Shown: piece after piece, positions 4,673 through 58,770 of the stretch
How the letters are laid out: the number at the start of each line of letters is the position of its first letter
Position numbering within the stretch: position 1 is the stretch's first letter
Source: a bacterium
GTDB taxonomy: Bacteria; Cyanobacteriota; Vampirovibrionia; Gastranaerophilales; JBAXKC01
NCBI GenBank assembly: GCA_037137535.1
Contig: JBAXKC010000015.1
Span: forward strand, 1 to 61,021
Direction: 5' to 3'
DNA: 61,021 bases
Position numbers and translations under genes: made by a program
The notes under the pieces: generated by a model
The model's input: the letters and a program-made list of their open reading frames with translations, nothing else
Told to the model about the DNA's origin: nothing
The model's database searches: none

Positions 4673-4706
4673 GCAATTAACGAAAGCATATATACTTTAT
4701 ATATAC
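4673..4706 (+). promoter_or_regulatory. Orphan-gene promoter motif GCAATT-N14-TACTTTATATATAC
   Basis: Both boxes are identical to the motif at 11458-11491; same spacing as other sites in the window. Confidence 0.75.
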
Positions 4707-4758
4707 AGAGTAGGTTTTATATTAAATGCATAAGTAAGTAAAAAGTGAGGTGAATACC

Positions 4759-6450
4759 ATGGCAGTTAGTTTTTCAGATGATTCATATAAAAGACTCCTG
4801 CTACAAAAACAACAAGGAGTTGGTTCTTCAACATCAGGTACAAATAAACCTTCTGAGGATCAGTCAAGAACAACACAACTTCAATCTAAATCGGTATTCA
4901 CAGTAGCTCAAAAGGAAAAAGCAAAACAAGCCGATCAAACTCAAGCAAATTCACAACAAGACACTCTAAAACAAATTGAAGAGTTTCTTAAAAATGGAAA
5001 TAAAAATGGAGTAAAAGGTCAACAACAACCTCAAAATGGTCTTGACCAAATATTAAACATGTTAACGGGTGGACAAAACGGTGCGAATAATATTGCATCA
5101 AGCAATGGATTATCAAATAATACACCTGCAAGCTCAGGAGCTGCAAGCCAATTTTCACCTGCCTCAACCCCAAGTGTTTCAGCAAGCAGCAAAAACCCTT
5201 CTGAATTAAAAAATGGACTTCAAAGTATTGCTAGTGCTTTAGGGCAAAATAATGGAATAATGAATCAAATCAATAATCTAATGAATGGTAAGTCACAAGA
5301 AATGACAGGACTTGACCAAGAAAATCAACAGTTAAGCCAAGATGGACAAACACAACAACAAACTATTCAACAAGCTGATCGAGTTGCTCAAAGACTTCAA
5401 CAAGAACAACAACAACTTCAAACAACTCAACAACAAAAAGGACAAGCGGAACAACAGAAAGCACAACTTGAATCAGGAATTAATCAAGCTAACGGCCAAA
5501 TAGGACAAGCTACAAACTTTATAGGTCAAGCCGTACAAACAATTACTCAAGGCGTACAAATGCTTGCTCAAGGTCAAGCCGCACTTGCAGCAGCTCAAGC
5601 TACAATCTTTGCCGCTCCGGCAGCTATAGCTGCAGCAATGAAAATAATTCAACAAGCTCAACAAATGCAACAACAAGGAAACCAAAATAAAGCTCACGGC
5701 GAACAACAAAAAGCTCAAGCTGAACAGCAGAAAGCACAACTTACACAACAAAAGCAACAAAAAGAACAACAAATACAACAACTTTCACAACAAGAACAGC
5801 AACAAACTCAACAAGTTGCACAAACAACTCAAGAAAATCAGCAAGCTCAAGTACAAAAACAACAAGCTGAGCAAAAATTACAACAAATTCAACAAAAACA
5901 ACAACAACTTGCTCCTAAACTTCAAAAATTACAACAAGAATTAACAACTCTTGAACAATCAAGAAATAATGTTTCAAATGCAATTAATAATCAATCCGGT
6001 TTACAACAACAACTTATAGACGCACTACAAAAATTAACGGGAGATGGAGGACAAGCCCAACAGACTCAAGAAGCACAACAAGACCCGAATCAACAAAATC
6101 AAAACGGTCAACAAAACGCTCAAAATCCGATGGGAGTCTTAGGTGCACTTATGAACTTGTTTGGACAAAATAAAGATCAAGCGTTAGCAGATCAAAACGA
6201 TCCCAATAATCCAAACAACAAAACTAACAACCAAACAGCAAATAACAATAATAAAGTTGATACAAAAACAGCAACAAAACCTGCAGACACATATAACTTA
6301 AAAGTATCTGCAAACATAAGAACTACAACAACTATAAGCCATGTATCACCTACAACTCCTTCAATATCAAATACAACACCGTCAACTTCACCGATATCAA
6401 CAGCTAGTACAACATCTCCTTCAATATTTACAAGAAAAAAACTAGTCTAA
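4759..6450 (+). CDS. Gln-rich coiled-coil protein with a single Ala-rich hydrophobic segment (translocator-like orphan)
   Basis: ORF 4750-6450; ATG at 4759 follows GAGGTG RBS; poly-Q heptads flank QAALAAAQATIFAAPAAIAAAM; S/T-rich tail. Confidence 0.8.
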   Translation: MAVSFSDDSYKRLLLQKQQGVGSSTSGTNKPSEDQSRTTQLQSKSVFTVAQKEKAKQADQTQANSQQDTLKQIEEFLKNGNKNGVKGQQQPQNGLDQILNMLTGGQNGANNIASSNGLSNNTPASSGAASQFSPASTPSVSASSKNPSELKNGLQSIASALGQNNGIMNQINNLMNGKSQEMTGLDQENQQLSQDGQTQQQTIQQADRVAQRLQQEQQQLQTTQQQKGQAEQQKAQLESGINQANGQIGQATNFIGQAVQTITQGVQMLAQGQAALAAAQATIFAAPAAIAAAMKIIQQAQQMQQQGNQNKAHGEQQKAQAEQQKAQLTQQKQQKEQQIQQLSQQEQQQTQQVAQTTQENQQAQVQKQQAEQKLQQIQQKQQQLAPKLQKLQQELTTLEQSRNNVSNAINNQSGLQQQLIDALQKLTGDGGQAQQTQEAQQDPNQQNQNGQQNAQNPMGVLGALMNLFGQNKDQALADQNDPNNPNNKTNNQTANNNNKVDTKTATKPADTYNLKVSANIRTTTTISHVSPTTPSISNTTPSTSPISTASTTSPSIFTRKKLV

Positions 6451-6454
6451 AATC

Positions 6455-6492
6455 AAAAGAGGCTACTCAAAAGTATTTGAGTAGCCTCTTTT
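6455..6492 (+). terminator. Rho-independent terminator
   Basis: AAAAGAGGCTACTCAAA-agta-TTTGAGTAGCCTCTTTT. Confidence 0.85.
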
Positions 6493-12532: not shown

Positions 12533-13120
12533 ATGGGTATGGAAATAAGCGGACTGGATATTACGCTAAGAAGAATAAGCCAAATAGAATCAAGTATTCA
12601 GGGGCTTGTAGGTGAACCGGCAGAACCGGATGCATTCAAGCAAGTTCTTACTGAAAAACTCAACGGCAATGATTCAAACGTACCTTCCGAATTCTTCATT
12701 AAACCATTTGCCAGTCAGGCAAATACCCCAAAAACCGATTTTGATTCTTATATAAAAAAAGCAGCTCAAGCAAACAACCTAGATCCAAACTTGCTAAAAG
12801 CCGTAATAAAAACAGAATCAGGGTTCAATGCAAACGCCAAATCACCTGTGGGTGCTCAAGGATTAATGCAACTGATGCCCGCAACCGCAAAAAGTATGGG
12901 AGTAGAAAACCCGTTTGACGCAGAACAAAACATTATGGGAGGAGCCAAATATTTAAGCGGATTAATAAAACGATTTGACGGAAAACTGGAAAATGCCTTA
13001 GCGGCATATAACGCAGGGGCTGGAGCAGTAAACAAATACGGAGGCATTCCTCCGTATAAAGAAACTCAAAACTATGTAAAACGTGTGTTAAGTTATCATC
13101 GTGAATTTTCAGGATTCTAA
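12533..13120 (+). CDS. Lytic transglycosylase (SLT domain), flagellum-associated
   Basis: AVIKTESGFN, GAQGLMQLMP, AAYNAG, PPYKETQNYV. Confidence 0.93.
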   Translation: MGMEISGLDITLRRISQIESSIQGLVGEPAEPDAFKQVLTEKLNGNDSNVPSEFFIKPFASQANTPKTDFDSYIKKAAQANNLDPNLLKAVIKTESGFNANAKSPVGAQGLMQLMPATAKSMGVENPFDAEQNIMGGAKYLSGLIKRFDGKLENALAAYNAGAGAVNKYGGIPPYKETQNYVKRVLSYHREFSGF

Positions 13121-13141
13121 GCCGTATAAAAAGGGGAAACA

Positions 13142-13942
13142 ATGGTAAAGGGTATAGATACAGCAGCTCAAGGAATGATGAGCATAATAATGCAGAATGA
13201 TATAAATGCAAATAACCTTGCAAATATCAATACTGCAGGTTTTAAGCAGTCACTTGCTGTATTTAAAAACAATTATGAAGGAAGCGTAAACAGAATAAAT
13301 ACGGTGGGCGGATACCAGCAATATGGCGAAAAACTAGGAACACTCAGCCTTGGTAGCAGCGTAGATGCAAGTGTAATTGATCTTACTCAAGGCAGCTTAA
13401 AACAAACAGGCAACAACATGGATCTTGCAATTCAAGGAAAAGGTTTCTTCACCGTAAAAATGCCTGACGGAACCGAAGCCTATACAAGAAACGGCAGCTT
13501 TGTAAAAAATAAAGACGGATTTATCTCCGACATGAACGGAAATTTACTAATGGGGCAAAAAGGACCAATTTCATTAGCAAATGCAGGAAATACCAATACG
13601 GCCGTTGATGTGAGTCAATTCAAAGTGGATGCAGGCGGTAACGTCTTATATAACAAACAAATTGTAGATAAATTAAAAATAGCTGACTTTAAGGATGTAA
13701 ATTCATTACAACAATATGGAACATCTCTTTTCAAAACTACTCAAACCTCAATAATGCCGACACCGGCTAATAATTTTCAAATATCACAAGGCGCTCTGGA
13801 AGGCTCTAACGCCAACGCAATCGAATGCATGATAAATTCAATGCACGGAGAAAGGACCTACGAATCACTTTCCAAAGTTATACAAACATCGGATAAATCT
13901 ATACAAAAAACAATAAATGACGTAGGCAGGGTAAAAAGATAA
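13142..13942 (+). CDS. flgF: Flagellar basal-body rod protein FlgF/FlhO
   Basis: ANNLANINTAGFK, DLAIQGKGFF, YTRNGSF, LEGSN; precedes flgG. Confidence 0.85.
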   Translation: MVKGIDTAAQGMMSIIMQNDINANNLANINTAGFKQSLAVFKNNYEGSVNRINTVGGYQQYGEKLGTLSLGSSVDASVIDLTQGSLKQTGNNMDLAIQGKGFFTVKMPDGTEAYTRNGSFVKNKDGFISDMNGNLLMGQKGPISLANAGNTNTAVDVSQFKVDAGGNVLYNKQIVDKLKIADFKDVNSLQQYGTSLFKTTQTSIMPTPANNFQISQGALEGSNANAIECMINSMHGERTYESLSKVIQTSDKSIQKTINDVGRVKR

Positions 13943-13970
13943 TTTAACAAGATAAAGGGCAGGAGGAAAA

Positions 13971-14756
13971 ATGTTAAGAGCTTTAACAACAGCGGCAACA
14001 GGAATGATAGCTCAACAACTAAATATAGACGTTATAGCTAACAACCTTGCTAACGTAAATACCACAGGCTATAAGAAATCAAGAGTTGAATTTCAGGATT
14101 TATTATCACAAACAATAAAATCCCCCGGTGCTCTTGTTTCTCAAGGAACAACTCAGCCTGTAGGTATTCAGGTAGGGCTTGGAACAAGAACTTCTGCCAC
14201 ACAAAAAGACTTTACTGAAGGAGTTATGAAATCTACGGGCGGAAAACTTGATATCGCCATTGAAGGTGACGGTTTCATACAAGTTCAAATGGATGACGGA
14301 ACAACAGCTTACACTAGAGACGGCAGTTTAAAAATGGATTCCAGCGGACAATTAGTAACAAGTGACGGTTATCTTGTACAACCACAAATAACTATTCCGC
14401 AAAACGCTTCAGAAGTAACCTTTACTCCCGACGGAAAAGTAGCCGTTACAGTTTCAGGACAAACAGCACAACAGGAAATAGGACAACTTCAACTTGCAAA
14501 GTTTGCTAACCCGTCAGGTCTTCTTTCAATAGGTAAAAACTTATTCACAGAAACAGCAGCATCGGGATCAGCCGTTCAAGGTACAGCAAATCAGGAAGGT
14601 TTTGGTTCTGTTCAACAAGGATTTGTAGAAGGTTCAAACGTTCAGGTAGTAGAAGAACTTATTAACTTAATTCAAGCAGAACGTGCTTTTGAATCAAATT
14701 CTAAAATTATCAAATCAGCCGATAACCTATTACAAACAGTAAACAGATTAGGATAA
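13971..14756 (+). CDS. flgG: Flagellar distal rod protein FlgG
   Basis: MLRALTTAATGM, ANNLANVNTTGYKKSR, EFQDLL, YTRDGS, EGSNVQVVEEL. Confidence 0.95.
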   Translation: MLRALTTAATGMIAQQLNIDVIANNLANVNTTGYKKSRVEFQDLLSQTIKSPGALVSQGTTQPVGIQVGLGTRTSATQKDFTEGVMKSTGGKLDIAIEGDGFIQVQMDDGTTAYTRDGSLKMDSSGQLVTSDGYLVQPQITIPQNASEVTFTPDGKVAVTVSGQTAQQEIGQLQLAKFANPSGLLSIGKNLFTETAASGSAVQGTANQEGFGSVQQGFVEGSNVQVVEELINLIQAERAFESNSKIIKSADNLLQTVNRLG

Positions 14757-14759
14757 TCA

Positions 14760-15473
14760 ATGAATAAAATCTTGAGCATAACGTTAATAACAATTATAAC
14801 CTTGTTTTCAACAGTTTTTAAGGTAAATGCAACTGTTTTAACACAAGGCTATATTTCTCTTGAAATAGGCAAACAGGCTCAAGAAATTATCAAAAGAGAA
14901 ATTAAATCAAATATAAACATAGACATAGATAACTCATACATAAGCAGCGTTGAAGTATATGGAAATAAATACAAAATTCAAGTGCTTTGCAACTCAGAAA
15001 AATTTAACCCTATAACAATTTTTAAAGTAAACATTTTATCAAACGGAAGCCTCGTAAAAACATTCGGTGTTCCGGTCAAAATTTCAATATTTGAAACAGT
15101 AGCAGTAGCGGCAAATAACATATATAGAGGTGAATTCCTTTCTAGCAACAATATTAAATATGAAAACAAAGAAATTAGTTTTATTTACGACAATGTAATG
15201 AAAGAATCCGATACACCCGAAGGCTTTATTGCAAACAAAATATACAGGCAAGGAGAAATAATAGATAAAAGATACATAGCCACTCCGCCAGATGTATTAA
15301 TGCATACCCCGATTTCAATAATATTCAAAAATGATGACATAACTGTTTCACTTGACGGAGAAGCAATGGATAACGGAAAAATCGGAGATTACATAAGAGT
15401 AAACAATAAAACTTATAAAAAGCAATATAAAGGTCAAATCATAGATAACAACACAGTAATGGTAAAACTTTAG
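14760..15473 (+). CDS. flgA: P-ring assembly chaperone FlgA
   Basis: Signal peptide, SAF-like region, C-terminal GEAMDNGKIGDYIRVNN; sits between flgG and flgH. Confidence 0.85.
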   Translation: MNKILSITLITIITLFSTVFKVNATVLTQGYISLEIGKQAQEIIKREIKSNINIDIDNSYISSVEVYGNKYKIQVLCNSEKFNPITIFKVNILSNGSLVKTFGVPVKISIFETVAVAANNIYRGEFLSSNNIKYENKEISFIYDNVMKESDTPEGFIANKIYRQGEIIDKRYIATPPDVLMHTPISIIFKNDDITVSLDGEAMDNGKIGDYIRVNNKTYKKQYKGQIIDNNTVMVKL

Positions 15474-15482
15474 GAAAAAACG

Positions 15483-16115
15483 ATGAAAAATAAATTATTA
15501 ATAATTTTAACTCTAAATATTTTTACCGTTTTATTAACCCAAAGCGTTAATGCTGAATCACTTTTCAGGCTAGGGATAAATCAAAACGCTTTTCCAATAC
15601 AACCTAAATCTCTTTACAGCACAGTAAGGGCAAAGACTATAGGGGATCTGGTTACAATTTTATTAAGCGAAACCTACTCAAACTCAGATGCTGTAACAAT
15701 GAAACTAACAAAAAACAGTTCAACAACCGACAACTTCACCAATAAAATCAACCAGTTAATACCAGGAACAAAACATGACCTCGGCAACTTTACAGGATAC
15801 GGTGGAAACTCAAGTATAAACAACACTTCAACCACATCAAGAGTCTCAACAATGACAAACACAGTAACAGCACAAGTAGTACAGGTCATGCCAAACGGAA
15901 ATCTGGTAGTACAAGGGAAGAAAACAGTCATAAACTCCAAAGAACGTGTTGAATATCTGATAAGTGGAATAATTGACCCAAGATTTATAGACAACACAGG
16001 AAAAATAACTTCAAACTTAGTAGCAAACTTACAAGTAGCCGCAACAGGAAAAGGAGCAGTATCTAAAGGGGAATCAGAAGGAACATTTAACAAACTTATA
16101 AGGGTACTCTTCTAA
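15483..16115 (+). CDS. flgH: Flagellar L-ring protein FlgH
   Basis: RAKTIGDLVTI, VTAQVVQVMPNGNLVVQGKK, SGIIDP. Confidence 0.9.
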   Translation: MKNKLLIILTLNIFTVLLTQSVNAESLFRLGINQNAFPIQPKSLYSTVRAKTIGDLVTILLSETYSNSDAVTMKLTKNSSTTDNFTNKINQLIPGTKHDLGNFTGYGGNSSINNTSTTSRVSTMTNTVTAQVVQVMPNGNLVVQGKKTVINSKERVEYLISGIIDPRFIDNTGKITSNLVANLQVAATGKGAVSKGESEGTFNKLIRVLF

Positions 16116-16136
16116 GAACAAATCAGGGGAAATGGT

Positions 16137-17249
16137 ATGGGGATCAAAAAAGCAATAACATTAATATTAATAGCCGGATTTATAAGCATGGGCTTTAGTT
16201 TTTCACAAGTCAAAGCTGACAGGGTGAGACTAAAGGACATTTCTCACATTGAAGGAGTAAGAGATAACCAAATCGTAGGTTATGGTATTGTTGTGGGTCT
16301 TGCAGGTACAGGAGATAACAGCCGTTCAACACAAATTACAAACCAAACATTAATTTCAAATCTAGGAACTGTAATACAAAACAGTAACGATATCAAAAAA
16401 GGCAATACAGCCGCAGTTATAATAACAGCAACCATCCCACCATTTGCAAAAAATGGCGATAAACTTGATATAACAGTTTCATCTCTTGCTGACGCAAAAA
16501 GCCTTGAAGGCGGTGTACTTGTCCAGACTCAACTCACTGCCGCAAACGGAGAAGTTATAGCAGTGGCACAAGGCCCAATAAGCACAGGTGGAACAGATGT
16601 AGGTGCAAATGGAAGCAGTGTAAGAACAAGCATTGTAACCTCGGGGAGAATACCCGGAGGCGCTATTGTTGAAAGAGATATTAATACAGAAATAGGTGAC
16701 GAACAGGGCTTAAAAATCAATTTAAATCGCTCTGATTTTACAATGGCTGCAAAAGTTGCCCAAACGATAAACGAAAATCTTGCACCTGCAAAAGCTATTG
16801 ATGGAAGCACTATACAAATATCAATCCCGCCAAAATTTGACGATGACAGAATAAGTTTCATATCAATACTTGAAAATCTAACAGTTGCAAATGGTGACAC
16901 AGTTGCAAAAGTAATAATAAACGAAAGAACAGGAACTATCGTAATAGGAAACAACGTAAAACTATTACCTGCTGCTATTGCTCACGGAAACCTCGTTGTT
17001 ACGGTAAGTACAAAAAATGAAGTTTCACAACCAAACGCATACTCAAACGGAACAACAACAGGTGCTCAAAATAGTGATATAACAGTTACAAAAAAACCTG
17101 GAAGATTAATAGAACTACCTGCTAACTCAAATCTTGGTGAACTTGTAAGAACATTAAATGCAATAGGTGTAACACCTTATGACCTTATTTCTGTATTACA
17201 AGCACTAAAAGCTGCAGGAAGCCTTCAAGCCCAGCTTGAAATAATCTAA
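16137..17249 (+). CDS. flgI: Flagellar P-ring protein FlgI
   Basis: RLKDI, GYGIVVGLAGTGD, AKSLEGG, NERTGTIV, LQALKAAGSL. Confidence 0.96.
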   Translation: MGIKKAITLILIAGFISMGFSFSQVKADRVRLKDISHIEGVRDNQIVGYGIVVGLAGTGDNSRSTQITNQTLISNLGTVIQNSNDIKKGNTAAVIITATIPPFAKNGDKLDITVSSLADAKSLEGGVLVQTQLTAANGEVIAVAQGPISTGGTDVGANGSSVRTSIVTSGRIPGGAIVERDINTEIGDEQGLKINLNRSDFTMAAKVAQTINENLAPAKAIDGSTIQISIPPKFDDDRISFISILENLTVANGDTVAKVIINERTGTIVIGNNVKLLPAAIAHGNLVVTVSTKNEVSQPNAYSNGTTTGAQNSDITVTKKPGRLIELPANSNLGELVRTLNAIGVTPYDLISVLQALKAAGSLQAQLEII

Positions 17250-17259
17250 GGAGGATAAA

Positions 17260-17592
17260 ATGGTAAGTTCGATAGACACACAAAGCGTATATAAGTTAAG
17301 TCCTACGGCAATTGAAGGAGCAAACGGTTTTAATTTTAAAAATGTTCCAGCTAATGAAAAAGACCAAAAGTTAAAAGAATCAGCTAAAGACTTTGAAGCA
17401 GTTTTTGTAAATCAATTTATGGAAACAATAAACAGCACAGTAGAAAGATCAGACTTTATGAGTGGAGGACAAGGAGAAGACACATTCAGGTCAATGCTTA
17501 CTCAGGAAATGTCAAAAAATATAGCCAGCAGTCCAACAACATCCTTCGGGCTTGCAGAACAAATATACAGACAAATGAAAGACAGAATCTAA
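17260..17592 (+). CDS. flgJ: FlgJ-like rod-binding protein (no muramidase domain)
   Basis: KLKESAKDFEAVF ... FRSML ... GLAEQIYRQM. Confidence 0.85.
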   Translation: MVSSIDTQSVYKLSPTAIEGANGFNFKNVPANEKDQKLKESAKDFEAVFVNQFMETINSTVERSDFMSGGQGEDTFRSMLTQEMSKNIASSPTTSFGLAEQIYRQMKDRI

Positions 17593-17610
17593 GGGGACAC
17601 TAAGGGGAGT

Positions 17611-17934
17611 TTGAAAATGGTTAACGGGATAAATGGAAATAGTATAAATTCACTTCAGCTTTTAAGAGCTAATCAGGCTTTTAAAAAATATGCTGAAAGT
17701 ACTGTTGAAAAAACAAATGTCAGTGTACCTGATCAGGATGTCAAACTTTCCATTGAAAGCAACAATACAGATAAAATAAAACTTTCAAAAACAGCTCAAG
17801 AAATACAAGCAGAAACAATGAGAAAACAATATATAGAAAAAATTCAACAACACACACAAATGAATGTTTCGGATGAAGACCTTAAATATGCCTTAAAATT
17901 TGGGAGAAGTGTTCTTGTTAACAGACTGGCATAA
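17611..17934 (+). CDS. Divergent FlgM-like protein (positional call)
   Basis: Between flgJ and flgN; DKIKLSKTAQE resembles the FlgM DxVxLS motif; C-terminus atypical. Confidence 0.45.
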   Translation: MKMVNGINGNSINSLQLLRANQAFKKYAESTVEKTNVSVPDQDVKLSIESNNTDKIKLSKTAQEIQAETMRKQYIEKIQQHTQMNVSDEDLKYALKFGRSVLVNRLA

Positions 17935-17962
17935 ACAATAAAAAAATAATCGGGAGGTTGGG

Positions 17963-18463
17963 ATGCAAGAAGTTATAAAAGATTTAGAAAAAATATTAAA
18001 TGCGCAAATATCAGTTTATTCTGATATGGAAAATCATATTTCACAAAAAAAAGAGATTCTTGTGAAAAATGACATCGAAAGCTTAAAAACAGTTGATATT
18101 GAAATAGAAAGACTGGCAAAAACCATTCAAAGTCTTGAAGCAAAACGTGTGCAGGTTTTATCGACACAACCTCATATGCTGAACCAGCCACTTTCCAAAG
18201 TTGCAGAGCTAACCTCTTCACCAAAAGAGAAACAAATAATTTTATCCCTTAAAGACAAACTCATAGATGTAATGCTCCGAGTAAAAAAAGCAAATGATCT
18301 GAATGCAGAACTCATAGCTCATTCAATCAAACTCGTTCAACACACCGCCCTTTTAATAGGAAATGCCTTAAACCCAGAAGGCTCTGCCTATAACAGAAAC
18401 GGTAAAGGGTATAAAAGCAATTCATCAAATAATTCAATAAGTTCAGTTATTCGTGACGTTTAA
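17963..18463 (+). CDS. flgN: Flagellar export chaperone FlgN
   Basis: Helical, with KKEILVKNDIESL ... LEAKR ... ANDLNAELI ... AYNRNG; immediately upstream of flgK. Confidence 0.85.
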   Translation: MQEVIKDLEKILNAQISVYSDMENHISQKKEILVKNDIESLKTVDIEIERLAKTIQSLEAKRVQVLSTQPHMLNQPLSKVAELTSSPKEKQIILSLKDKLIDVMLRVKKANDLNAELIAHSIKLVQHTALLIGNALNPEGSAYNRNGKGYKSNSSNNSISSVIRDV

Positions 18464-18478
18464 TCAGAGGTTAAGGGT

Positions 18479-20125
18479 ATGACATCAAGTTTATTCGGTA
18501 TATATAATGCACACAGATCCCTTCTTATGAATCAGGCGGCACTTAACCTGGTTAACTCAAACATTACCAATATGAATACAGAAGGGTATAGTAAGCAAAG
18601 ACTGGAAATATCACAAAACGTATTAGGCGGATCTGCTCCGGGTACACCGCTTAATGCTGCTCAATCAGGACTTGGTGCATACGTTGATAACATCTCAAGA
18701 AACCGTGATGCATTCCTTGACTCTTATTACAGAAAAGAAACCACTACATTAGGCTATTATTCAGAATTACAAAATAACAATGTAATGCTTGAAGATATAA
18801 CAAACGAACTTTCCAATACAGGTATAAACTCAACTCTTAATGATTTCTATAATGCGGCAAACCAACTTAACTCTAACCCCACAGATACTGTTGCAAGAAC
18901 AGATTTTGCTCAAAAAGCAGAAAATGTAGCGTTAAAACTTAATCACCTTTATGAGCAATTAAACTCATTTAACCAATCAGCAGCAGGAAATCCCGCCGAT
19001 CCCGCAACGTTAGGACAAAGTCAAATAGGAGTCACAGTAACAGAGTTAAATACAAAGTTACAAAACCTTGCAGACTTAAACAATACTATTATTGTTTCAA
19101 CCTCACAAGATATTACTCCTAACGGTCTTCTTGATCAAAGAGACCTACTTCTCGACCAAATATCACAATATATACCCATAACAGTAAAACCAGGAGCAGG
19201 AAATGTTGTAAACGTTTCACTAGGTGGAAATGAACTGGTTTCAGGTCGTGTCTTTACCACAAGACTTGAATATGAACTTACCGATACTGCCCAACAAGGT
19301 AATAACACCACAAATCCTGCCATTATAAAGCTAAAAAACAACACCACAAATAATACCCTTATTCCTAATGCAAATGCAATGCTAAATTCCGGTAAAATTG
19401 GAGCATTACTGGATTTAACAGAAACAAACTCAACAAGTCCAAACAATGTCAACGGTATTTTAGGTCAATTAAATAACCTTGCCAGAACTTTTGCAAAAGA
19501 AGTTAATGATATTCAATTATCAAAAGACGGTAATGACAATACTTTAAGTCTTTCAATGGATAAAACAACATCACCTCCGACACTTACTGAAGCAACCGAT
19601 TATATATTTACTTCATCGGATCCGACAGTAGCTGATGAAGTAACAACTTCAGATAATTACGACAATATTACAGCAGGAAATATAAAACTAAATTCAAATA
19701 TATTATCAGACCCTTATAAAATTGCAGCATCAAAACTGACTTATGACCCTACCGATACAAAATATGCAGATAAAGCTGATTTTATAGCAAAAAATAACAC
19801 ACAAACAGGTGATGGCAGCAACATTATGCTTATATCTCAATTGAGGAATAAAGGCATAACAAGTCTTAATGGTTCAACAACCGAAAATTATGTAAACACT
19901 ATGCTTGGAAAATTCGGAATACAGTCAGGCACAGTGTCAGACAAACTTAACGCTCAAACGGCTGTTGTTGATCAAATAAAACAAAAACGAGAAACTGCTA
20001 TCGGCGTAAACTTAGATGAAGAACTTACTGATATGGTGAAATATCAAAGGTCTTACGAAGCATCTTCAAAAGTATTTAACGTTGTAAATCAAGTCATTCA
20101 AGAAATGATAAAACTGGGGAGTTAA
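18479..20125 (+). CDS. flgK: Hook-associated protein FlgK
   Basis: NITNMNTEGYSKQR, LLDQRDLLLD, GVNLDEELTDMVKYQRSYEASSK. Confidence 0.95.
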   Translation: MTSSLFGIYNAHRSLLMNQAALNLVNSNITNMNTEGYSKQRLEISQNVLGGSAPGTPLNAAQSGLGAYVDNISRNRDAFLDSYYRKETTTLGYYSELQNNNVMLEDITNELSNTGINSTLNDFYNAANQLNSNPTDTVARTDFAQKAENVALKLNHLYEQLNSFNQSAAGNPADPATLGQSQIGVTVTELNTKLQNLADLNNTIIVSTSQDITPNGLLDQRDLLLDQISQYIPITVKPGAGNVVNVSLGGNELVSGRVFTTRLEYELTDTAQQGNNTTNPAIIKLKNNTTNNTLIPNANAMLNSGKIGALLDLTETNSTSPNNVNGILGQLNNLARTFAKEVNDIQLSKDGNDNTLSLSMDKTTSPPTLTEATDYIFTSSDPTVADEVTTSDNYDNITAGNIKLNSNILSDPYKIAASKLTYDPTDTKYADKADFIAKNNTQTGDGSNIMLISQLRNKGITSLNGSTTENYVNTMLGKFGIQSGTVSDKLNAQTAVVDQIKQKRETAIGVNLDEELTDMVKYQRSYEASSKVFNVVNQVIQEMIKLGS

Positions 20126-20140
20126 ACTAGGGGTTGAAAT

Positions 20141-21097
20141 ATGATATATCCAAGAGTCACAAATAAACTTATAAGTGAAAATGTTGTAGACATATTAAAT
20201 ACAAACCGTTCAAAACTTAATCAGTTGAACGAGCAAATAGCAACTGGTAAAAAAATAAGTAAGGCCTCTGACAACCCGACTGGTGCTGTAAGTATTCTTA
20301 CGACAAATACATCTATGAATAAAATTGAAAGCTATAAAAAAAATATAGATAGTGCTTCTTCTGAAATGGATGCTACTGACAGAGCAACATTATCCTTAAT
20401 TGATTCAATTCATAGAGCAAGAGATCTGACATTACAAGCAGCTGATGCATCAAGCGGACCTTCTGAACTGGCTAGTATAAATGATGAGATAAAACAATTA
20501 ACCGAACAAGTGAAAGACATAGCTAATACACAATTTGGCAATAAATATATTTTCGGCGGACTTGTAACAAGCTCTGCTCCTTTTCTAAAAGCAGGCGATA
20601 ACGGTGATGAAGTAAAGTATGTAGGAACAGACTCCACCCAAAACTACCAAAGACAGGTTGAAATCGGAGAAAATATAAAAGTAGACTTAAACGTAGCAGG
20701 TGATAATATTTTTGGACAATATTACACTGATAAGACAACCGACCCCGCTACAACAGTTAGTTCAGGAATTATTGGAACATTAAAAGAACTAAGCAAAGAG
20801 CTTGAAACAACTCCTGCTAATTACGACAATATCCGTTCAAAATTAAATGGGCTTGATGCTTCTCTTTCAAAAACTCTTAACGTTCAAGCCACAGTGGGTG
20901 GAATGATGTCAAGACTTGACATGACAAAAAACAAATTAGAAGAAGATAACGTAACTCTTACAAAATTCAAATCAAATATAGAAGATCTTGATCTTCCAAA
21001 AGCTATTTCTGACTTAAAATTTCAACAGGATTCTCTTCAAGCTTCATTATCTATAAGCGCTAAAGTAATGCAAGCATCATTATTACAATACCTATAA
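20141..21097 (+). CDS. flgL: Hook-associated protein FlgL
   Basis: ATGKKISKASDNP, KYIFGG, C-terminal SLLQYL. Confidence 0.94.
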   Translation: MIYPRVTNKLISENVVDILNTNRSKLNQLNEQIATGKKISKASDNPTGAVSILTTNTSMNKIESYKKNIDSASSEMDATDRATLSLIDSIHRARDLTLQAADASSGPSELASINDEIKQLTEQVKDIANTQFGNKYIFGGLVTSSAPFLKAGDNGDEVKYVGTDSTQNYQRQVEIGENIKVDLNVAGDNIFGQYYTDKTTDPATTVSSGIIGTLKELSKELETTPANYDNIRSKLNGLDASLSKTLNVQATVGGMMSRLDMTKNKLEEDNVTLTKFKSNIEDLDLPKAISDLKFQQDSLQASLSISAKVMQASLLQYL

Positions 21098-23080: not shown

Positions 23081-23116
23081 TATATATATAAAAACCAAAC
23101 CATGCAAAAACTTGCC
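23081..23116 (-). promoter_or_regulatory. Orphan-gene promoter motif GCAAGT-N14-GTTTTTATATATA
   Basis: Minus strand reads GGCAAGT-ttttgcatggtttg-GTTTTTATATATATA. Confidence 0.75.
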
Positions 23117-23173
23117 TTTTTTATGAACTTTTGTAAAGTACAATAATGGCTTAATTATTAAACTTTTGAGTTT

Positions 23174-25127: not shown

Positions 25128-25157
25128 TATAAAAACAAAAAACAATTATAAATTACC
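25128..25157 (-). promoter_or_regulatory. Orphan-gene promoter motif GTAATT-N14-GTTTTTATA
   Basis: Minus strand reads GGTAATT-tataattgtttttt-GTTTTTATA. Confidence 0.7.
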
Positions 25158-25192
25158 TATTTTATTAAAAATATATAATTTAAAGTTATATT

Positions 25193-25573
25193 TTATTCCC
25201 TTGAATCAAAAATAACAGGATCTTTAGTCAATTTTATTCTATATGCCAAAGCCATTTTATTGTTTATTTTATTCTGATTCATTGCTTTTTTCAAATCGGC
25301 ATGCTTTTCAGTCATAACAGCCATATTTTGAGCTTCAAGATCTTTTATTTTTTTTAAAGCATTATTTATGTAAGTTTTTTGTTGTTCTGTATAATCAATA
25401 TCTGAAAGTATTTGCCCCATTGCTTCTACCAAAGAAGCACGCTCAACAACAGCAGCTTCAACTTCAACAGCAGATTCTTCTTTATTCAAAAGATCTCTTA
25501 TATGACAAGTTTGTTTATACAACTCAGCATATATATTCATAAATTTATCAAAACAGTTATTCATAAAACTCAA
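25193..25573 (-). CDS. FliT-like small helical protein
   Basis: Overlaps the fliS stop (ATGA); VVERASLVE and AYR patterns are FliT-like. Confidence 0.55.
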   Translation of the reverse strand: MSFMNNCFDKFMNIYAELYKQTCHIRDLLNKEESAVEVEAAVVERASLVEAMGQILSDIDYTEQQKTYINNALKKIKDLEAQNMAVMTEKHADLKKAMNQNKINNKMALAYRIKLTKDPVIFDSRE

Positions 25574-26489: not shown

Positions 26490-26499
26490 AAATCAATCC

Positions 26500-37482: not shown

Positions 37483-38398
37483 TTATTTCTTTTGTTTAGT
37501 TTTCCAATAATCAATAATGTAATCTTTATTAGCGTTTGCTTCTTTAGCATATTTTGATATTTCTTCTGGAGTCATTTGTTCTATATCAAGACCTCTTTCT
37601 TTTGTTATCTCCATCAATCCAGTAAAAATAACACCCAATGTAGTTGTCGTTCCATAAGCTACAGCTGCATTAGCTGCATTTCCAAAACCAGGGAACCAAG
37701 ATATAAATTTTACAGCAATTTGAGGACCAACAACAGATAAAACAGCTGGTCCAGAGACAGCGGTCATAACATTTTTAATATTTTTAATTCCATAAACTGC
37801 TGCAATTCCAGCACACATAGCACCTTGTATTGTAGTTACAGCTGCAGTATCAAGTACACCTGTTTGAGCTAAAGAACCAGCTGTTGCTGATGCTGATACA
37901 GCAGCTGCTTGACAAACAGCAAGTGATTTTAATAATCTTTCATTTCTCATATCTTCTCTTACACCTAAAAATGAAAGTTTTTCACTTTTATTCTGTTTTA
38001 CTGGAATCAAAGCAACATCTTTACCAACCTGCATTATCTCTTTTAAAGATGTAATTTCTTTTTCTTCTTCTTCTGTTGTTGCATTTTTTAATGATAAATC
38101 TAATGCTTTTATAGTATAATCAATTGAAGGAAGTAAATCTTTTGATTTTAAAATTTTTCCTTCAAACTCATGTTCAATAGACTGTCCTTCTTTAATAAAC
38201 TTCGTTTCATCTATTTGTTCTACCGAGGATTTAAAATTAATTTGATTAAGTTGTAAATTTCTAACAGCCATAGATGCTTTAGAATCAACTAAAGCACTTG
38301 ATGACAAACCAGCTTTATTTTCAATACTATTTAAAGCTATTGTTTGTTTGTTTGTTTGTTTCACGACTAAAAGTCAATCCTTTGTTAAGGGTAATCAT
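37483..38398 (-). pseudogene. Leader-bearing DUF697/YcjF-like membrane protein, frameshifted at an (AAAC)5 tract
   Basis: AGGAG RBS plus ATG 38398 gives MITLNKGLTFSRETNKQTNNSFK* (stop at 38327-38329); removing one AAAC fuses it to the 293-aa ORF; leader homologous to 34786/35469. Confidence 0.75.
38342..38361. repeat. Tetranucleotide SSR (GTTT)5, read as (AAAC)5 on the coding strand
   Basis: Directly visible; lies in the 5' coding region. Confidence 0.95.
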
Positions 38399-42583: not shown

Positions 42584-42949
42584 ATGAATAGCTTTAATTT
42601 TAATACTAATTTCAAAGCCTATAAAAGTTGTGAGAGTTCTTTAGATTACGCTTTAGATGTTTTCTGTACTTCAAAAACAGGAAGTGTATTTGATTGCGTG
42701 GCTCCATTAAAACATTCAACAGCAAACTCTGCAACTTCAAGAAAACTTAAAAACATGTTTCGAGCTATAGATCAAAAAATAACTTTATTTGACGTAGCAA
42801 CAAGTCAAAATAGTTGTTCTTCTGATGTTACAAATAAGGCAACAGACCTTTTAATGGAACTTAGAGAAACTAATGATCCATATAGAAAACAAGAAGTTAT
42901 GGATAAAGTTGACAACTTTTTTGAAAATGTAAAAAAAGGTAATCTTTAA
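42584..42949 (+). CDS. Orphan protein with a 'TNFKA' leader
   Basis: 121 aa; begins MNSFNFNTNFKA. Confidence 0.7.
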   Translation: MNSFNFNTNFKAYKSCESSLDYALDVFCTSKTGSVFDCVAPLKHSTANSATSRKLKNMFRAIDQKITLFDVATSQNSCSSDVTNKATDLLMELRETNDPYRKQEVMDKVDNFFENVKKGNL

Positions 42950-55062: not shown

Positions 55063-55911
55063 TCAACCCAGCATTAGAGCAGCAAAGCCAAGTTGTTTAT
55101 CTTTATAATTAGCATCGTATTTTCCGTCTGCTACATATTTACCGCCCGAGTATTTGTCTGTGCCTGATAATACGTATGGAGAGGCAACTCCTTTTTTCTC
55201 ATAGCCTACACCATTATAAAGTTCTGCAAATGCACACCATTCTGGTACTGATTGAGGCATTTTACCGCCTACTTTAGGAAGTTCACGTTTTATTGCATCT
55301 ACGGCTGCATCTTCCCAATTATTGAAATTTATGCCTGCCGGTACGTTTTTAGTCGGTGAACCTAATTTATCGCCATTATGTAGATAAGTTGTAAAGTCAC
55401 AGCCACCTTCTCTACAATGTATAGCCCAGATAGCTTTTGAAACCATTGGTATTAATTGTTCAGGAACTCCAAGTTTTCTTGCTACACCTTCGTATTTCCC
55501 TTTATTTTGTTCAAAAATCTGTTTAAATTTAGCGAGTTCATTTTTTTGCGTTCCACTAAGGTTTAATTGCATATTTTGAAGAATACCTTCATATTTTTTG
55601 GCTCTACTATCGTTTGATGCTGAAGTCATTGGCATATGGGCAGCGTTAGCAATATTTGTAACGCTATTAGCATTATTAAAAGGATTAGCTGTTCCTGTTG
55701 TATTTGTAGGCATTGCCGATAGACCGCCTAAAATAGCATCTGTTTGAGCCTGTATTGATCTAGCCTGAGCATAGACAGAATTTGATTGAGAAGCTTGAGT
55801 AAAAACACTTGCGCTTGCCAATTGAGGATTTTGAGCAGGAGTTGCGGTTTTAACTCCATTTGCTTGAGCATATTTAGCATAATTTGAGTAAATTTCTTGA
55901 ATTGTAGTCAT
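55063..55911 (-). CDS. Lysozyme-like (COG5526-type) peptidoglycan hydrolase with a disordered N-terminal leader and no signal peptide
   Basis: AIHCRE, FTTYLHNGD, ELYNGVGY, SPYVLSGT, GKYVADG, DKQLG. Confidence 0.8.
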   Translation of the reverse strand: MTTIQEIYSNYAKYAQANGVKTATPAQNPQLASASVFTQASQSNSVYAQARSIQAQTDAILGGLSAMPTNTTGTANPFNNANSVTNIANAAHMPMTSASNDSRAKKYEGILQNMQLNLSGTQKNELAKFKQIFEQNKGKYEGVARKLGVPEQLIPMVSKAIWAIHCREGGCDFTTYLHNGDKLGSPTKNVPAGINFNNWEDAAVDAIKRELPKVGGKMPQSVPEWCAFAELYNGVGYEKKGVASPYVLSGTDKYSGGKYVADGKYDANYKDKQLGFAALMLG

Positions 55912-55944: not shown

Positions 55945-55974
55945 TATAAAAACATTTTGACTTTAAGAATTGCC
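55945..55974 (-). promoter_or_regulatory. Orphan-gene promoter motif GCAATT-N14-GTTTTTATA
   Basis: Minus strand reads GGCAATT-cttaaagtcaaaat-GTTTTTATA. Confidence 0.8.
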
Positions 55975-56065
55975 TATTTTTTTTATTTTTTAAGTTTTTC
56001 TTGTATAAAAACGGTGTATTTTATAACATGAAATTAAAGTATAAAATCAAAATGAGGTGTATCTT

Positions 56066-57331
56066 ATGTCAAAACCTATGACCATTACCGAAAAAATACT
56101 TGCGGAGCATGCAGGTTTAGAAAGTGTTTCACCTGGTGATTTAATATCTGCTAAGGTTGATATTACCCTTGCAAATGATATAACAGGACCTGTTTCTATA
56201 AATGAATTTAAAAAAATAGGTGTAGATAAAGTTTTTGACTCAGAAAGAGTTGTTTTTGTTCCTGATCATTTTACGCCTAATAAAGATATAAAATCGGCTC
56301 AAAATGCAAAAATGGTTAGAGAATTTGCAAAAACACAAAAATTAAAACATTATTTTGAAATAGGAAGAGTTGGCATTGAGCATACATTATTACCTGATAA
56401 TGGAATAGTAGGTCCCGGTGATATTGTTATCGGCGCTGATAGTCATACTTGTACTTATGGTGCTATAGGTGCTTTTTCAACAGGGGTTGGTTCTACTGAT
56501 TTATCTTGTGCTATGGCTTCAGGTGAAACATGGTTTAAAGTTCCTGAATCTATAAAAGTTATTTTTAACGGTAAATTAAATAAATGGGTTAGCGGTAAAG
56601 ATTTAATTCTGCATCTTATTGGAGATATAGGGGTTGATGGCGCTTTATATAAATCATTAGAATTTTGCGGGTCTACTATAGAAGAACTTAGTATTGACGG
56701 TAGATTTACAATGTGTAATATGGCGATAGAGGCAGGAGCTAAAAACGGTATTATTGCTCCAGACTCTATTACTGAAGAGTTTGTAAAAAACAGAGCTTTA
56801 AGACCTTATAAGTTTTATAAAAGTGATGAAGATGCTGTTTATTCAAGAGTTATAGAATATGATGCTTCAACAATTGAACCGACTGTTGCCTTTCCTCATC
56901 TTCCTGAAAATACAAGACCTATTTCACAAGTTGGTGATGTAAAAATAGATCAAGCTGTTATAGGGAGCTGTACAAACGGAAGATTATCAGATTTAGCTGT
57001 TACTGCTGAAATATTAAAAGGCAGAAAAATTCATGAAGATGTCAGATTAATAGTTTTCCCTGGTACACAGGAAATTTATCTTGAAGCTATAAATAAAGGT
57101 TATATACAAACTATAATTGAAGCAGGGGGTGCTGTAAGCACACCAACATGTGGTCCTTGTTTGGGAGGTCATATGGGAGTTTTAGCTGAAGGAGAAAGAT
57201 CTATCTCAACTACAAACAGAAACTTTGTTGGTAGAATGGGGCATCCTAAATCAGAGGTTTATCTTTCAAGTCCTGCAATAGCTGCGGCAAGTGCTGTACT
57301 TGGAAAAATAGCTTCACCTGAAAGCTTATAG
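56066..57331 (+). CDS. leuC: 3-isopropylmalate dehydratase large subunit (LeuC/HacA type)
   Basis: [40 protein letters not shown] at 56066 after GAGGT. Confidence 0.92.
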
Positions 57332-57507
57332 CAATAAATATCATTATAAATTAGCCCTTCTTTATAGAGGGGCTTTTGTTTTTTTATGTTAATTTTTATT
57401 AACTTATATTTTTTATTCTACAAATGATAGCAATTTTAGGTGTTTGTTTTTATTTTATTATAAGTAGTATAAGTTTTTGTTTATATAAAAAGAGGCAATC
57501 ACTCTTA

Positions 57508-58770
57508 ATGACAACCCCAATTTTAAACAGACAATTACCAATAAATAATATAGCTGCTAACCCTTTAGGTGAGCAGAAAGTACCTGTTGTTCCCACAAAT
57601 CAACAGGTTGTTCCTGTCCAATCTAAAACTGAACCTGTTAATAATCCAAAGTTGACAGGTCCGGTTAAAGATACTGTAATTTTAAATACAAAAACTGCAG
57701 CACAGCCTACTGTTATTAATACAGCTGTGGATTCAACTCAAAAAAATATAGATCCAGAGCAACTGTCTCTGCCTAAACCCGATGAGGTAAAGGCACAGGT
57801 GAAAAGGCCTATGAATGTTGGAGTTGTTAATCCTGGTGTTCCTTCAAGTTATGCGGAAGGTAAAAATACTGAACCTCAGATAGATCCTAAAATGCTGGCA
57901 CAGGCGGGTATTAATACTAATGACCCTCAACAGTTGGCGGCTTTAGGTCTTTCTCCCGAACAGATGAGAGAATTAGCAACTAATGTTCAGAAAAATGGAA
58001 AAGCAGGAATTAACTCAATAATACAAGCCGGAGGAGTTGCTTTAGTAGCTGTAACAGGTCTTGTTATGTCTTTTACTACAAAAGGTAAGGCTTTTGCTAA
58101 AAATCTATGGAATAAAATCCAGCAATCAGGCTTTATAGGCGATGTTGTAAATAATGTTAAATCTACTTGTAATGACTTAAAAACAAAAACATCTAATCTT
58201 TTTTCTGATGTTACAAAGTGGAATAGCCCTGTAACTGTTTGTTTAGAGGATAAACATCCTGGAATTGAGCATTTGAGCTTAACAAAATATTTTTCTGATT
58301 TGAATGATTTAATAAAAAAGACTCCATTAAGTTCCTCTCACTTTCGCCCTATCAATATAAGATTTATGAATAATCAATCTATGGCTAAAGATGAAATAGA
58401 AAATGCTATAAAGCACGTCTGGACAATTGGTGAACATTTTTCTGGTTTAGATGATATAACGCCAAGGTTTAAGATAACTATGGAAGGCTTTGGTGGTGGT
58501 CTTGAAAATTGGGCAAATTATTGTTTTCATAATTCTAAAAATGTAGATGATTTTATTGAGCAAATAAAACACATACCTTGTACGGACGGTAGTACTATGA
58601 GTTTGCTTGACCATATTCAAACAGTAGAATTATCTGCCGCCGAACCTAATTCATTGATGAGTGGTTTATTTAAGAATAGAAATAGAATTGGTGTTAATCT
58701 GGGACAACATATGCCTGTTAATGAAAGAGGCGGTTGGTTATCGGCTTTTGCTAACTGGTTTAGACTTTAA
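57508..58770 (+). CDS. Orphan protein with a long P/N/Q-rich leader, one TM helix and an unknown C-terminal domain
   Basis: ATG 57508 after AGAGG; KDTVIL motif; TM GGVALVAVTGLVMSF. Confidence 0.75.
   Translation: MTTPILNRQLPINNIAANPLGEQKVPVVPTNQQVVPVQSKTEPVNNPKLTGPVKDTVILNTKTAAQPTVINTAVDSTQKNIDPEQLSLPKPDEVKAQVKRPMNVGVVNPGVPSSYAEGKNTEPQIDPKMLAQAGINTNDPQQLAALGLSPEQMRELATNVQKNGKAGINSIIQAGGVALVAVTGLVMSFTTKGKAFAKNLWNKIQQSGFIGDVVNNVKSTCNDLKTKTSNLFSDVTKWNSPVTVCLEDKHPGIEHLSLTKYFSDLNDLIKKTPLSSSHFRPINIRFMNNQSMAKDEIENAIKHVWTIGEHFSGLDDITPRFKITMEGFGGGLENWANYCFHNSKNVDDFIEQIKHIPCTDGSTMSLLDHIQTVELSAAEPNSLMSGLFKNRNRIGVNLGQHMPVNERGGWLSAFANWFRL

Follow-up and report, generated by a model that had tools for sequence, protein, structure and literature searches.

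We describe a short, phenylalanine-centred tag that lies near the N-terminus of many otherwise unrelated proteins of a bacterium of the order Gastranaerophilales (Cyanobacteriota; Vampirovibrionia; JBAXKC01) and that was recognised in a DNA stretch of 61,021 nucleotides (GenBank assembly GCA_037137535.1, contig JBAXKC010000015.1, positions 1 to 61,021), referred to below as the window. The tag is specific to the N-terminus, modular, under selection, translated and partly co-regulated, and it is a genome-wide N-terminal feature that is not centred on the flagellar locus of the window. We infer that it is a targeting signal; that a flagellar-type type III gate reads it, and that the tagged proteins leave the cell, is a guess. 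The genome that holds the window (as contig C15) comprises 2.95 Mb in 81 contigs at about 24–36% G+C, the sequencing runs in which it occurs carry the label freshwater metagenome, and every proteome count given here rests on 2713 genes from our own codon-usage caller (87% coding). A position matrix for the tag was built on the whole genome, and 154 proteins, or 5.7% of the proteome, reach the score of at least 12 at which a protein is called tagged, with an estimated false-discovery rate near 8%. Some of the matches, for example in ribosomal or biosynthetic proteins, are surely due to chance.

A first-pass annotation of the window had listed 11 motif strings, all of which translate exactly at the open reading frames (ORFs) to which they were assigned. 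Enrichment of the motif in N-termini is clear for a tighter core and weak for the loose regular expression of that annotation, which is barely above chance: 280 of the 2713 proteins match it in their first 100 residues, against a mean of 226 (range 206–262) in 20 shuffles, and 10 of the 65 proteins of the window do so. In an unbiased word test that compared the first 100 residues with the rest, VSF (90 vs. 33.6), ISF (112 vs. 61.3) and SFKG (24 vs. 5.0) are enriched in N-termini, as are LSF and SFT. The core [IVL][SA]F[KTSGAQR][GAS] occurs 129 times in residues 1–100, where 29.4 ± 5.3 are expected (at most 44 in 50 shuffles), and is at expectation beyond residue 100 (63 vs. 60.8); per 10,000 residues there are 7.7–8.1 occurrences within the first 20 positions and about 1 past residue 100. 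Because this core was picked after the data had been seen, matrices seeded with VSF and SFT were also trained on one half of the contigs and scored on the other. Training on the odd contigs gave, at a strict threshold, 27 sites in the even contigs, compared with 7.3 from the interior rate and 5.3 from shuffles (maximum 12), and training on the even contigs gave 26 sites in the odd ones, compared with 7.7 and 7.0. Eight of the 11 ORFs first listed score at least 12 on the matrix, those ending at 21174 and 36165 are borderline (11.0 and 9.9) and that at 42584 is weak (5.0). The window itself is only mildly enriched in tagged ORFs (8 of 65 vs. 3.7 expected, p = 0.029).

A motif of this kind could arise as an artefact of an AT-rich genome, through over-extended starts, a ribosome-binding site read as protein, or plain Asn/Lys/Ile-rich composition, and the low G+C content, the crude caller from which our genes and starts come and the near-chance behaviour of the loose expression all speak for this. 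However, N-terminal shuffles that keep the composition give 29 occurrences of the core against the 129 observed, and the held-out halves agree. Frame 0 is the best-scoring frame of the leader DNA in all but one of 89 cases (88 of 89), and a Shine-Dalgarno-like word lies within the motif DNA of 17 of the 154 proteins, with an in-frame start behind it in one of those 17; at 1 in 154 for such a word plus a start, an artefact of start codons or ribosome-binding sites is ruled out. Public metagenome proteins, whose genes were called independently, show the same leaders and the same motif, and the replacements seen at each motif position are chemically conservative. The artefact reading is therefore close to refuted, and we regard it as very improbable.

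Asn (2.4-fold) and Gln (1.75-fold) are over-represented in the leaders and Asp/Glu, Cys, Trp and Gly are scarce; a frequent start is M-[I/L/N]-[N/I]-N. At positions 2–7, tagged proteins carry less D/E than the others (2.8% vs. 9.6%) and more N (22% vs. 9.5%) and S/T (16.8% vs. 12.7%), while A/V/I/L are present without enrichment (28.5% vs. 30.4%). The Phe stands at a median position of 25, at or before residue 10 in 22 of 154 proteins and at or beyond residue 60 in 24. Around it the matrix has V/I/L at -2 (87%), S/A at -1 (67%), K/T/S/G at +1 and G/A/S at +2 (74%), and many sites read LS.D[T/E]VSF. The earlier statement that the carriers lack a Sec signal peptide is borne out, and such a peptide was rejected as an explanation: an uncharged hydrophobic segment starts before residue 12 in only 7 of 154 tagged proteins, compared with 316 of 2449 others. 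No hydrophobic segment at all is found in 98 of the 154; 40 have one or two further in, a mild enrichment over the 435 of 2449 other proteins with such segments, and 9 have three or more. In an AlphaFold2 model of a tagged guanylate kinase (mean predicted local distance difference test score, pLDDT, 74.9), residues 1–46 have a pLDDT below 50 and the motif is not docked on the enzyme. No Pfam or NCBIfam model matches the leaders, and a search among the tagged proteins for a shared C-terminal motif found none.

The view that unrelated cargo follows a shared leader is well supported. The 154 tagged proteins fall into 134 BLAST families, 98 of the proteins having no paralogue, and the motif is therefore not explained by common descent of one domain. 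Pfam scans covered all but 30 of the 154; in one scan of 90 tagged proteins 60 have no family, and neither do the orphans of the window. Those with recognisable functions include starch and glycogen enzymes (a starch synthase, four GH13 enzymes, a GH77 glucanotransferase and three NTP-transferases with long extensions), which make up a near-complete glycogen pathway, nucleotide and RNA enzymes (two DHH phosphoesterases, the guanylate kinase, a cytidine deaminase of the window, a poly(A)-polymerase-type enzyme and a DEAD/DSHCT helicase) and wall-active enzymes (M15, VanY and Amidase_3), besides AAA ATPases and M16, FHA, HEAT and pentapeptide proteins. For the tagged guanylate kinase, starch synthase, DHH phosphoesterase, cytidine deaminase and Ski2-like helicase, the same genome holds a shorter, leaderless paralogue that is 26–46% identical; judged from sequence, such pairs are the pattern expected if the second copy were sent elsewhere. 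Tagged genes also tend to be neighbours, with 15 adjacent pairs among the 82 carriers of a cleaner regular expression against 2.3 expected (at most 11 in 1000 permutations). The leader moves as a module: the products of 34786–35415 and 35469–36074 share 84 of 90 leader residues and 13 of the next 110.

The motif core is under selection, being kept by the orthologues of three families while their leaders drift. The four closest metagenome relatives of the deaminase 36165–36956, which are 53–60% identical to it, keep h-x-F-[KG]-[GN] (as I-M-F-G-N or I-I-P-F-K-G) in diverged leaders. Six metagenome relatives of the tagged guanylate kinase keep an ML.S..G.N start together with LS.DT.SF or IAFKG, and in three orthologues of 30122–31015 (52–64% identical) residues F45, L46, F48, K49 and G50, which belong to the pattern F-L...[S/T]-F-K-G, are invariant within a variable leader. 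Among contigs sampled at one genome per species, the close relatives of the tagged kinase were only ordinary kinases, 31–35% identical. An RNA-library contig from the probable source sample spans 21166–23069, almost exactly the gene 21174–23042, and its upstream end lies 19 bases below the promoter-like box of that gene, although such contigs prove neither transcription nor a start site. Contigs from two RNA libraries cover parts of 37069–38483, one of them spanning 37069–37762, and leave much of 23336–25336 and 30673–33340 uncovered, which is uninformative on expression.

A single dedicated regulon behind a shared upstream promoter had also been proposed for these genes. A two-box element with the consensus [T/A]AGG[C/T]AAT-N17-TTTTTAT does stand upstream of 21174, 23174 and 55063 (scores 29.7, 27.4 and 30.5), but the match at 4759 is weak (8.4) and the other ORFs of the window do not share it. 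Counts from the window do not by themselves exceed chance (2 vs. 0.95 expected). Over the whole genome, 50 genes have an upstream match to the two-box matrix in the sense orientation, compared with 16 in an antisense control, and 16 of these 50 AGGCAAT-box genes are tagged (odds 8.6, p = 5e-9). The promoter is shared by only 16 of the 154 tagged genes; co-regulation therefore extends to roughly a tenth of the set, and the notion of one regulon has to be given up. The upstream word of the 15 seed sites is AGGCAA in 14 and AGGTAA in one, and the downstream word is TTTT[A/T]T, not GGTAA. The Synechocystis pilA1 promoter of SigF, a group 3 sigma factor, has TAGGC at -32 and GGTAA at -12 (NAR 2008, PMC2532724). 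Compared with that promoter, the upstream box [T/A]AGGCAAT found here is the same word as the -32 element, whereas the downstream box is TGTTTTTAT and not GGTAA (PMC2532724). The genome encodes one true FliA/WhiG and two weaker relatives, one of the latter adjoining flhB-2.

A protein family of about 194 residues has four copies in the window (29318–29917(-), 44882–45466(+), 45683–46267(+) and 46512–47096(+)) that start with MGLAASQGRMLTL. It has no Pfam, NCBIfam or PDB match, its Atlas clusters are Melainabacteria-only, and it is probably an undescribed flagellum-linked protein. Two of the copies have sigma-28-like boxes (29996–30022 and 45578–45604) and two have boxes of the AGGCAAT type; within the window, the sigma-28-like box TAAAGT-N14-GTCGATA is found only before 29318–29917 and 45683–46267 (2 vs. 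0 expected), neither of which is tagged, and the tagged genes thus do not fit a sigma-28 flagellar class III regulon. Because the promoter set holds paralogues of this family whose other copies bear the sigma-28-like box, the promoter class is loosely tied to motility regulation. The copies 44822–45466 and 46452–47096 differ nowhere in the protein or in the 130 upstream bases that were read, which points to a recent tandem duplication flanking 45683–46267.

The genome contains two full flagellar-type core gene sets, each with its own full FlhA gene (Table 1). The two FlhA types score about 880 and 710 bits on the FHIPEP model. Most families of the class have both and some only the lower-scoring one, while one family with large genomes has neither (1 weak match in 15). 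Four further proteins consist of the FlhA C-domain alone, at about positions 300–655 of FHIPEP (C2:107687-109057, C34:182-1675, C27:25204-26991 and C60:3193-4599), and one or two such stand-alone proteins occur in each of 40 relatives searched. The corresponding gene of one relative, G015 (L055:13538-15019), heads an operon with FliJ-, FliK-, FlgD- and FlgE-like genes, and the FliK-like protein of that relative (L055:11349-12938(-)) starts with MSVLSESNILDLSFKA, so that a type III substrate bears a tag-like string, a single case that could be chance. The genome also encodes three secretins, a Tad-like cluster, TatC and two C39-peptidase ABC exporters, the latter with neighbouring outer-membrane and adaptor genes. 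The Tad-like pilus cluster (C7:29640-36694) holds two TadB/C-like genes, an ATPase, a response-regulator-like gene, a secretin and a CpaB-like gene, named from their translations and from Secretin and T2SSE matches, and lies about 4 kb from the second FliPQR. The VipB (type VI) and VirB4 (type IV) families have no match in the genome. A contractile injection system was rejected as a candidate: the sole sheath gene sits in a Mu/P2-like myovirus prophage on contig C35, together with tape measure, baseplate, portal and terminase genes, and neither VipB nor VirB4 is found. Judging from gene content, the type III gate is the only known N-terminal-signal secretion machine found in the genome.

We propose that a polar, Asn/Gln/Ser/Thr-rich, acid-poor leader of 3 to about 90 residues, probably disordered, would lead into a strand-like core, [Val/Ile/Leu]-[Ser/Ala]-Phe-[Lys/Thr/Ser/Gly]-[Gly/Ala/Ser], and that the two may form a modular address tag that has been put on about 150 unrelated proteins in this lineage, among them orphans, small membrane proteins and extra copies of cytoplasmic enzymes. 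Recognition would most likely take place in the cytoplasm, by a sorting or export machine, and the first candidate for the reader of the tag is the flagellar-type type III gate, whose FlhA-type cytoplasmic ring would bind the Phe core. Of the readings that we consider, a tag for export or sorting that such a gate reads comes first, because the gate is the only N-terminal-signal secretion machine found and because a docking prediction weakly supports it; we hold it tentatively, as a possibility that falls somewhat short of probable. The case for the flagellar type III route is circumstantial. The hook protein FlgE has a conserved N-T-V-G-F-K-G whose VGFKG scores 17.8 on the tag matrix, and one rod paralogue scores 13.3. 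When residues 1–60 of the tagged kinase were docked against residues 345–704 of FlhA-2, the one receptor candidate modelled, the prediction scored 0.46 (runs 0.46, 0.43 and 0.52) compared with 0.00 for the best of three controls; agreement between the runs is at least 42% of contacts, with a pLDDT of at least 43 for the partner. This lends weak support to a contact between the leader and the FlhA-2 C-domain. In calibration, 116 of the 157 solved complexes passed the docking mark, as did 2 of the 215 mismatched pairs; these counts hold only roughly since our own alignments were used. Among scores of 0.60 or less there are only 18 of the 157 solved complexes and both of the passing mismatches.

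Several observations weigh against the type III route. By that same calibration, docking passes of this kind are wrong in more cases than not, save where the guess was already a likely one. The tagged genes do not lie around a modified flagellar locus as had been supposed, with 5 tagged genes against 7.0 expected within three genes of 63 flagellar or type III secretion genes (p = 0.84) and 4 against 4.9 at a stricter tag threshold. Nor, in the genome samples taken, does the tag follow the presence of export gates, a co-occurrence that the first-pass annotation had led one to expect. The tag load was counted in one 400-kb stretch from each of five relatives, in which clusters could be missed. 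G001 (4 vs. 5.2) and G044 (4 vs. 4.8) have both gates and no expansion of the tag, and typical instances occur only in G028 (6 vs. 3.8) and G015 (7 vs. 4.0), one of those in G015 lying beside the second gene set; G093, which is without any gate, is at chance. A hydrophobic residue stands at +4 from the Phe in 45 of 154 tagged proteins (29%), compared with 33% for other N-terminal Phe residues, and the Phe lies fewer than 30 residues from the start in 86 and fewer than 20 in 62 of the 154. Hydrophobic segments follow the tag in 49 of the 154 proteins; the tagged VanY carboxypeptidase and amidase have anchors of their own that would already place both in the membrane, and several cargos depend on ATP or sugar nucleotides. 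Genes for a needle or translocon did not come to light, although no family-level search for them was made.

The second-ranked reading is a cytoplasmic short linear motif that is never exported and that either docks its carriers on a hub, such as the cell pole, the division site or a storage granule, or marks them for conditional proteolysis or chaperone hand-over. The effect of such a motif would be the same on a soluble enzyme as on a membrane protein with a cytoplasmic tail; in VanY and Amidase_3 the anchor lies between the tag and the catalytic domain, so that the tag would stay in the cytoplasm, and a Tat-like twin-arginine stretch follows the tag in the cytidine deaminase. Cargos that depend on ATP or nucleotide sugars, together with the whole glycogen set, would fit one shared intracellular site, the tagged genes are not clustered with secretion genes, and the leader is disordered and does not dock in cis. 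On the other hand, a housekeeping docking or degron motif should be kept across relatives, whereas the expansion is lineage-specific, and the majority of carriers evolve fast and are orphans (98 singletons among the 154, no Pfam family for 60 of 90 scanned). N-terminal modules are also shuffled between unrelated bodies. Fast evolution and module shuffling are more typical of proteins at the outer interface of a cell. No candidate hub was found either, and on balance we consider this explanation rather unlikely, though well worth keeping in view.

A signal read by some route other than type III is a third possibility, whether a propeptide cut at or next to the Phe by a dedicated protease, a leader for a C39 ABC exporter or another path such as vesicles. 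The arrangement h-[S/A]-F followed by small residues might resemble a protease site, the two C39-peptidase ABC transporters have outer-membrane and adaptor neighbours, and with the leader removed several carriers would start with a normal basic-plus-hydrophobic signal, while the Tat-like stretch of the deaminase would become N-terminal. Against this, Gly precedes a small residue in only 16% of sites, which is no double-glycine leader, 98 of the 154 carriers have no hydrophobic segment whatever, and some cargos measure 800–1500 residues. Cargos of that size are unlike the known substrates of C39-type ABC exporters. Prp-type processing at Phe-Ala was considered and rejected, as ribosomal protein L27 has no N-terminal extension. 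We rate these other routes together as improbable. Returning to the flagellar-type gate, its most far-reaching form, in which this would be the first type III-type signal with a consensus motif and one of the two gates, helped by FlhA-C rings, would export about 150 tagged proteins, including the glycogen pathway, nucleotide enzymes, wall hydrolases and membrane hairpins, is unlikely. A role in predation or host interaction, as first suggested, is pure inference.

The features of the window and the two export gene sets are collected in Table 1. Two tagged ORFs, 21174–23042 and 23174–25060, do sit between fliS and flgL as first described. Homologues of the former occur in 10 of 40 relatives, about half of them with F-x-G in the leader, and its AlphaFold2 model (mean pLDDT 44.4, predicted template modelling score 0.31) is too poor for a fold search. 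That the two are divergent FliD proteins was ruled out, FliD being encoded at C34:23689-24408. The cytidine deaminase assigned to 36165–36956 is confirmed by matches to Pfam PF00383 and NCBIfam TIGR01354; its leaderless paralogue, C16_12001, is 44% identical. At about residues 62–85 this deaminase, the only carrier in which one was noticed by eye, has the Tat-like twin-arginine stretch (MTRREFLAAVEG...) after the tag. The stretch is missing from the four closest relatives of the deaminase, whose gene adjoins a NupC-type nucleoside transporter (38524–39819). The LS.DT.SF context of 47258–47851 is shared with the tagged guanylate-kinase family; TonB-box-like and FliM-N-like readings of it were considered but not adopted. 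Other labels did not survive: 'lysozyme' for 55063–55911 and 'DUF697-like' found no Pfam family (E ≤ 5), NCBIfam family (E ≤ 0.1) or PDB sequence match (E ≤ 1). The motif is absent from 55063–55911, which had been described as leader-bearing, and from 4759, which score only -0.2 and 1.9 on the matrix. In the flagellar block 12533–21097, SLT was named by Pfam and FlgL by Flagellin_N, and the rest from translations and paralogy to Pfam-annotated rod genes.

Table 1. Tagged ORFs, promoter-like boxes and flagellar-type genes; positions without a contig name refer to the window.
Feature	Position	Strand	Details
Flagellar rod/ring/hook-associated block: SLT, FlgF, FlgG, FlgA, FlgH, FlgI, FlgJ-like, FlgM, FlgN, FlgK, FlgL	12533..21097	+	Untagged context
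622-aa orphan between flgL and the fliS operon	21174..23042	-	Tag NTFTG 22977-22991(-), matrix 11.0; no Pfam/NCBIfam family
Promoter-like box AGGCAAG-N17-TTTTTAT	23088..23117	-	Upstream of 21174-23042, score 29.7
About 628-aa paralogue of the 21174-23042 orphan	23174..25060	-	Tag KAFTG 24995-25009(-), matrix 16.6
Promoter-like box AGGTAAT-N17-TTTTTAT	25129..25158	-	Upstream of 23174-25060, score 27.4
Late flagellar operon: 231-aa protein, FlaG, FliS, 123-aa FlgN-like protein	25193..27195	-	Untagged context; Pfam FliS, FlaG; weak NCBIfam FlgN, E 0.0026
297-aa orphan	30122..31015	+	Tag LSFKG 30257-30271(+), matrix 14.8
107-aa protein, one C-terminal hydrophobic segment	34298..34621	-	Tag ISFKS 34601-34615(-), residues 3-7, matrix 13.3
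209-aa orphan	34786..35415	-	Tag ISFKG 35176-35190(-), matrix 17.3
201-aa orphan, N-terminal module as in 34786-35415	35469..36074	-	Tag ISFKG 35835-35849(-), matrix 17.1
Cytidine deaminase, domain residues 124-223 behind an extension of about 120 residues	36165..36956	-	Tag VKFTG 36777-36791(-), matrix 9.9
140-aa orphan	37051..37473	-	Tag PTFKS 37429-37443(-), matrix 12.0
293-aa orphan	37483..38364	-	Tag INFKS 38227-38241(-), matrix 14.4; paralogue C1_192806 tagged too
121-aa orphan, doubtful member	42584..42949	+	TNFKA 42605-42619(+), matrix only 5.0
197-aa protein, one hydrophobic segment	47258..47851	+	Tag VSFGN 47363-47377(+) after LSKDT, matrix 15.4
282-aa Q/A/N/S-rich protein	55063..55911	-	Untagged, promoter set only; promoter 30.5, matrix -0.2
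Promoter-like box AGGCAAT-N17-TTTTTAT	55946..55975	-	Upstream of 55063-55911, score 30.5
Export gene set 1	C3:62058-67096; C36:1706-8066; window 12533-21097		FliPQR-FlhB-FlhA on C3; FliF-FliI on C36; rod/ring/hook-associated genes in the window
Export gene set 2	C13:60-10372; C7:21484-25501; C21:47278-49069; C9:75529-77703		C13: FlgBC, two FlgF/G-like, FliE, FliF, FliH, FlhA, FliI; C7: FliPQR; C21: FlhB and a divergent sigma

Motif-defined tags on soluble proteins are rare in bacteria, and here a short motif marks about 5.7% of the proteome, among them apparently retargeted copies of core enzymes. Should this motif serve export or sorting, the secretome of this uncultured lineage could be read from sequence, a new element would be added to the biology of the non-photosynthetic relatives of cyanobacteria, and a compact, portable label would be at hand. 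To our knowledge, the N-terminal signals of type III substrates are notoriously free of consensus; should a consensus-bearing type III signal prove to be the case, it would mean that the organism leads an unrecognised life together with a host, prey or partner cell, or that it has an extracytoplasmic compartment of its own. A literature search found no description of such an N-terminal tag.

Among known N-terminal address labels, the Sec, Tat, lipoprotein, prepilin and double-glycine leaders are alike in kind to the tag. Unlike the Sec, lipoprotein and Tat leaders, however, 98 of the 154 carriers have no hydrophobic core, and the tag has no Cys, no twin arginine and no Gly-Phe context for cleavage. 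A type IV prepilin leader was rejected, with Gly at -1 in 9% of sites, where Ser/Ala make up 67%, and with those 98 carriers lacking any hydrophobic segment, and so was the double-glycine leader of C39 ABC exporters, with Gly at +1 in 16% of sites, Lys/Thr/Ser in 63% and no Gly-Gly. A closer relative might be sought in the export signal of early flagellar subunits, whose gate motif has the form F-x-x-x-hydrophobic. In rod and hook subunits (eLife 2022, PMC8983047), that signal combines a hydrophobic extreme N-terminus with a gate-recognition motif that docks on FlhB-C, and it requires 19–30 or more residues between the start and the motif. The tag resembles this signal in being an N-terminal, uncleaved, unchaperoned and disordered stretch with a short, Phe-centred motif, and the organism's own hook protein scores 17.8 on the matrix. 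Small non-polar residues at about positions 2–7, another trait of the early-subunit signal, are found in the tagged proteins without being enriched (A/V/I/L 28.5% vs. 30.4%). The tag differs in showing no preference for a hydrophobic residue at +4 (29% vs. 33%), in that over half of the motifs lie nearer the start than 19–30 residues, and in that the carriers are not axial proteins. The tag thus lacks the defining features of an early flagellar export signal, which tells against the type III reading.

Comparison with secretion in chlamydiae gives a similarly mixed picture. Chlamydial Inc membrane proteins are linked to type III secretion and have paired hydrophobic segments shortly after the signal. 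Like them, the tagged proteins make up a few per cent of the proteome and are orphan, clustered and partly hairpin-membrane proteins, whereas hairpin-type carriers are only mildly enriched here (40 of 154 vs. 435 of 2449). Chlamydia also sends glycogen enzymes into the inclusion by type III secretion (eLife 2016, PMC4829429), and glycogen-metabolism enzymes that have N-terminal signals and no signal peptide are a feature which the two organisms share. In contrast, chlamydial signals have no consensus motif whereas a consensus core is present here, and the organism described here is a flagellated freshwater bacterium with no shown host. Terminal reassortment occurs in type III effectors, and the one N-terminal module that stands before unrelated bodies in 34786/35469 is a likeness to it, although it is seen here for only a few pairs of putative targeting leaders. 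Finally, the effector signal of injectisome-type systems comprises about 25 first residues that are disordered, polar and acid-poor and have no hydrophobic core, and the tag leaders are likewise disordered, polar and acid-poor (D/E 2.8% vs. 9.6%; pLDDT below 50 for residues 1–46 in one model).

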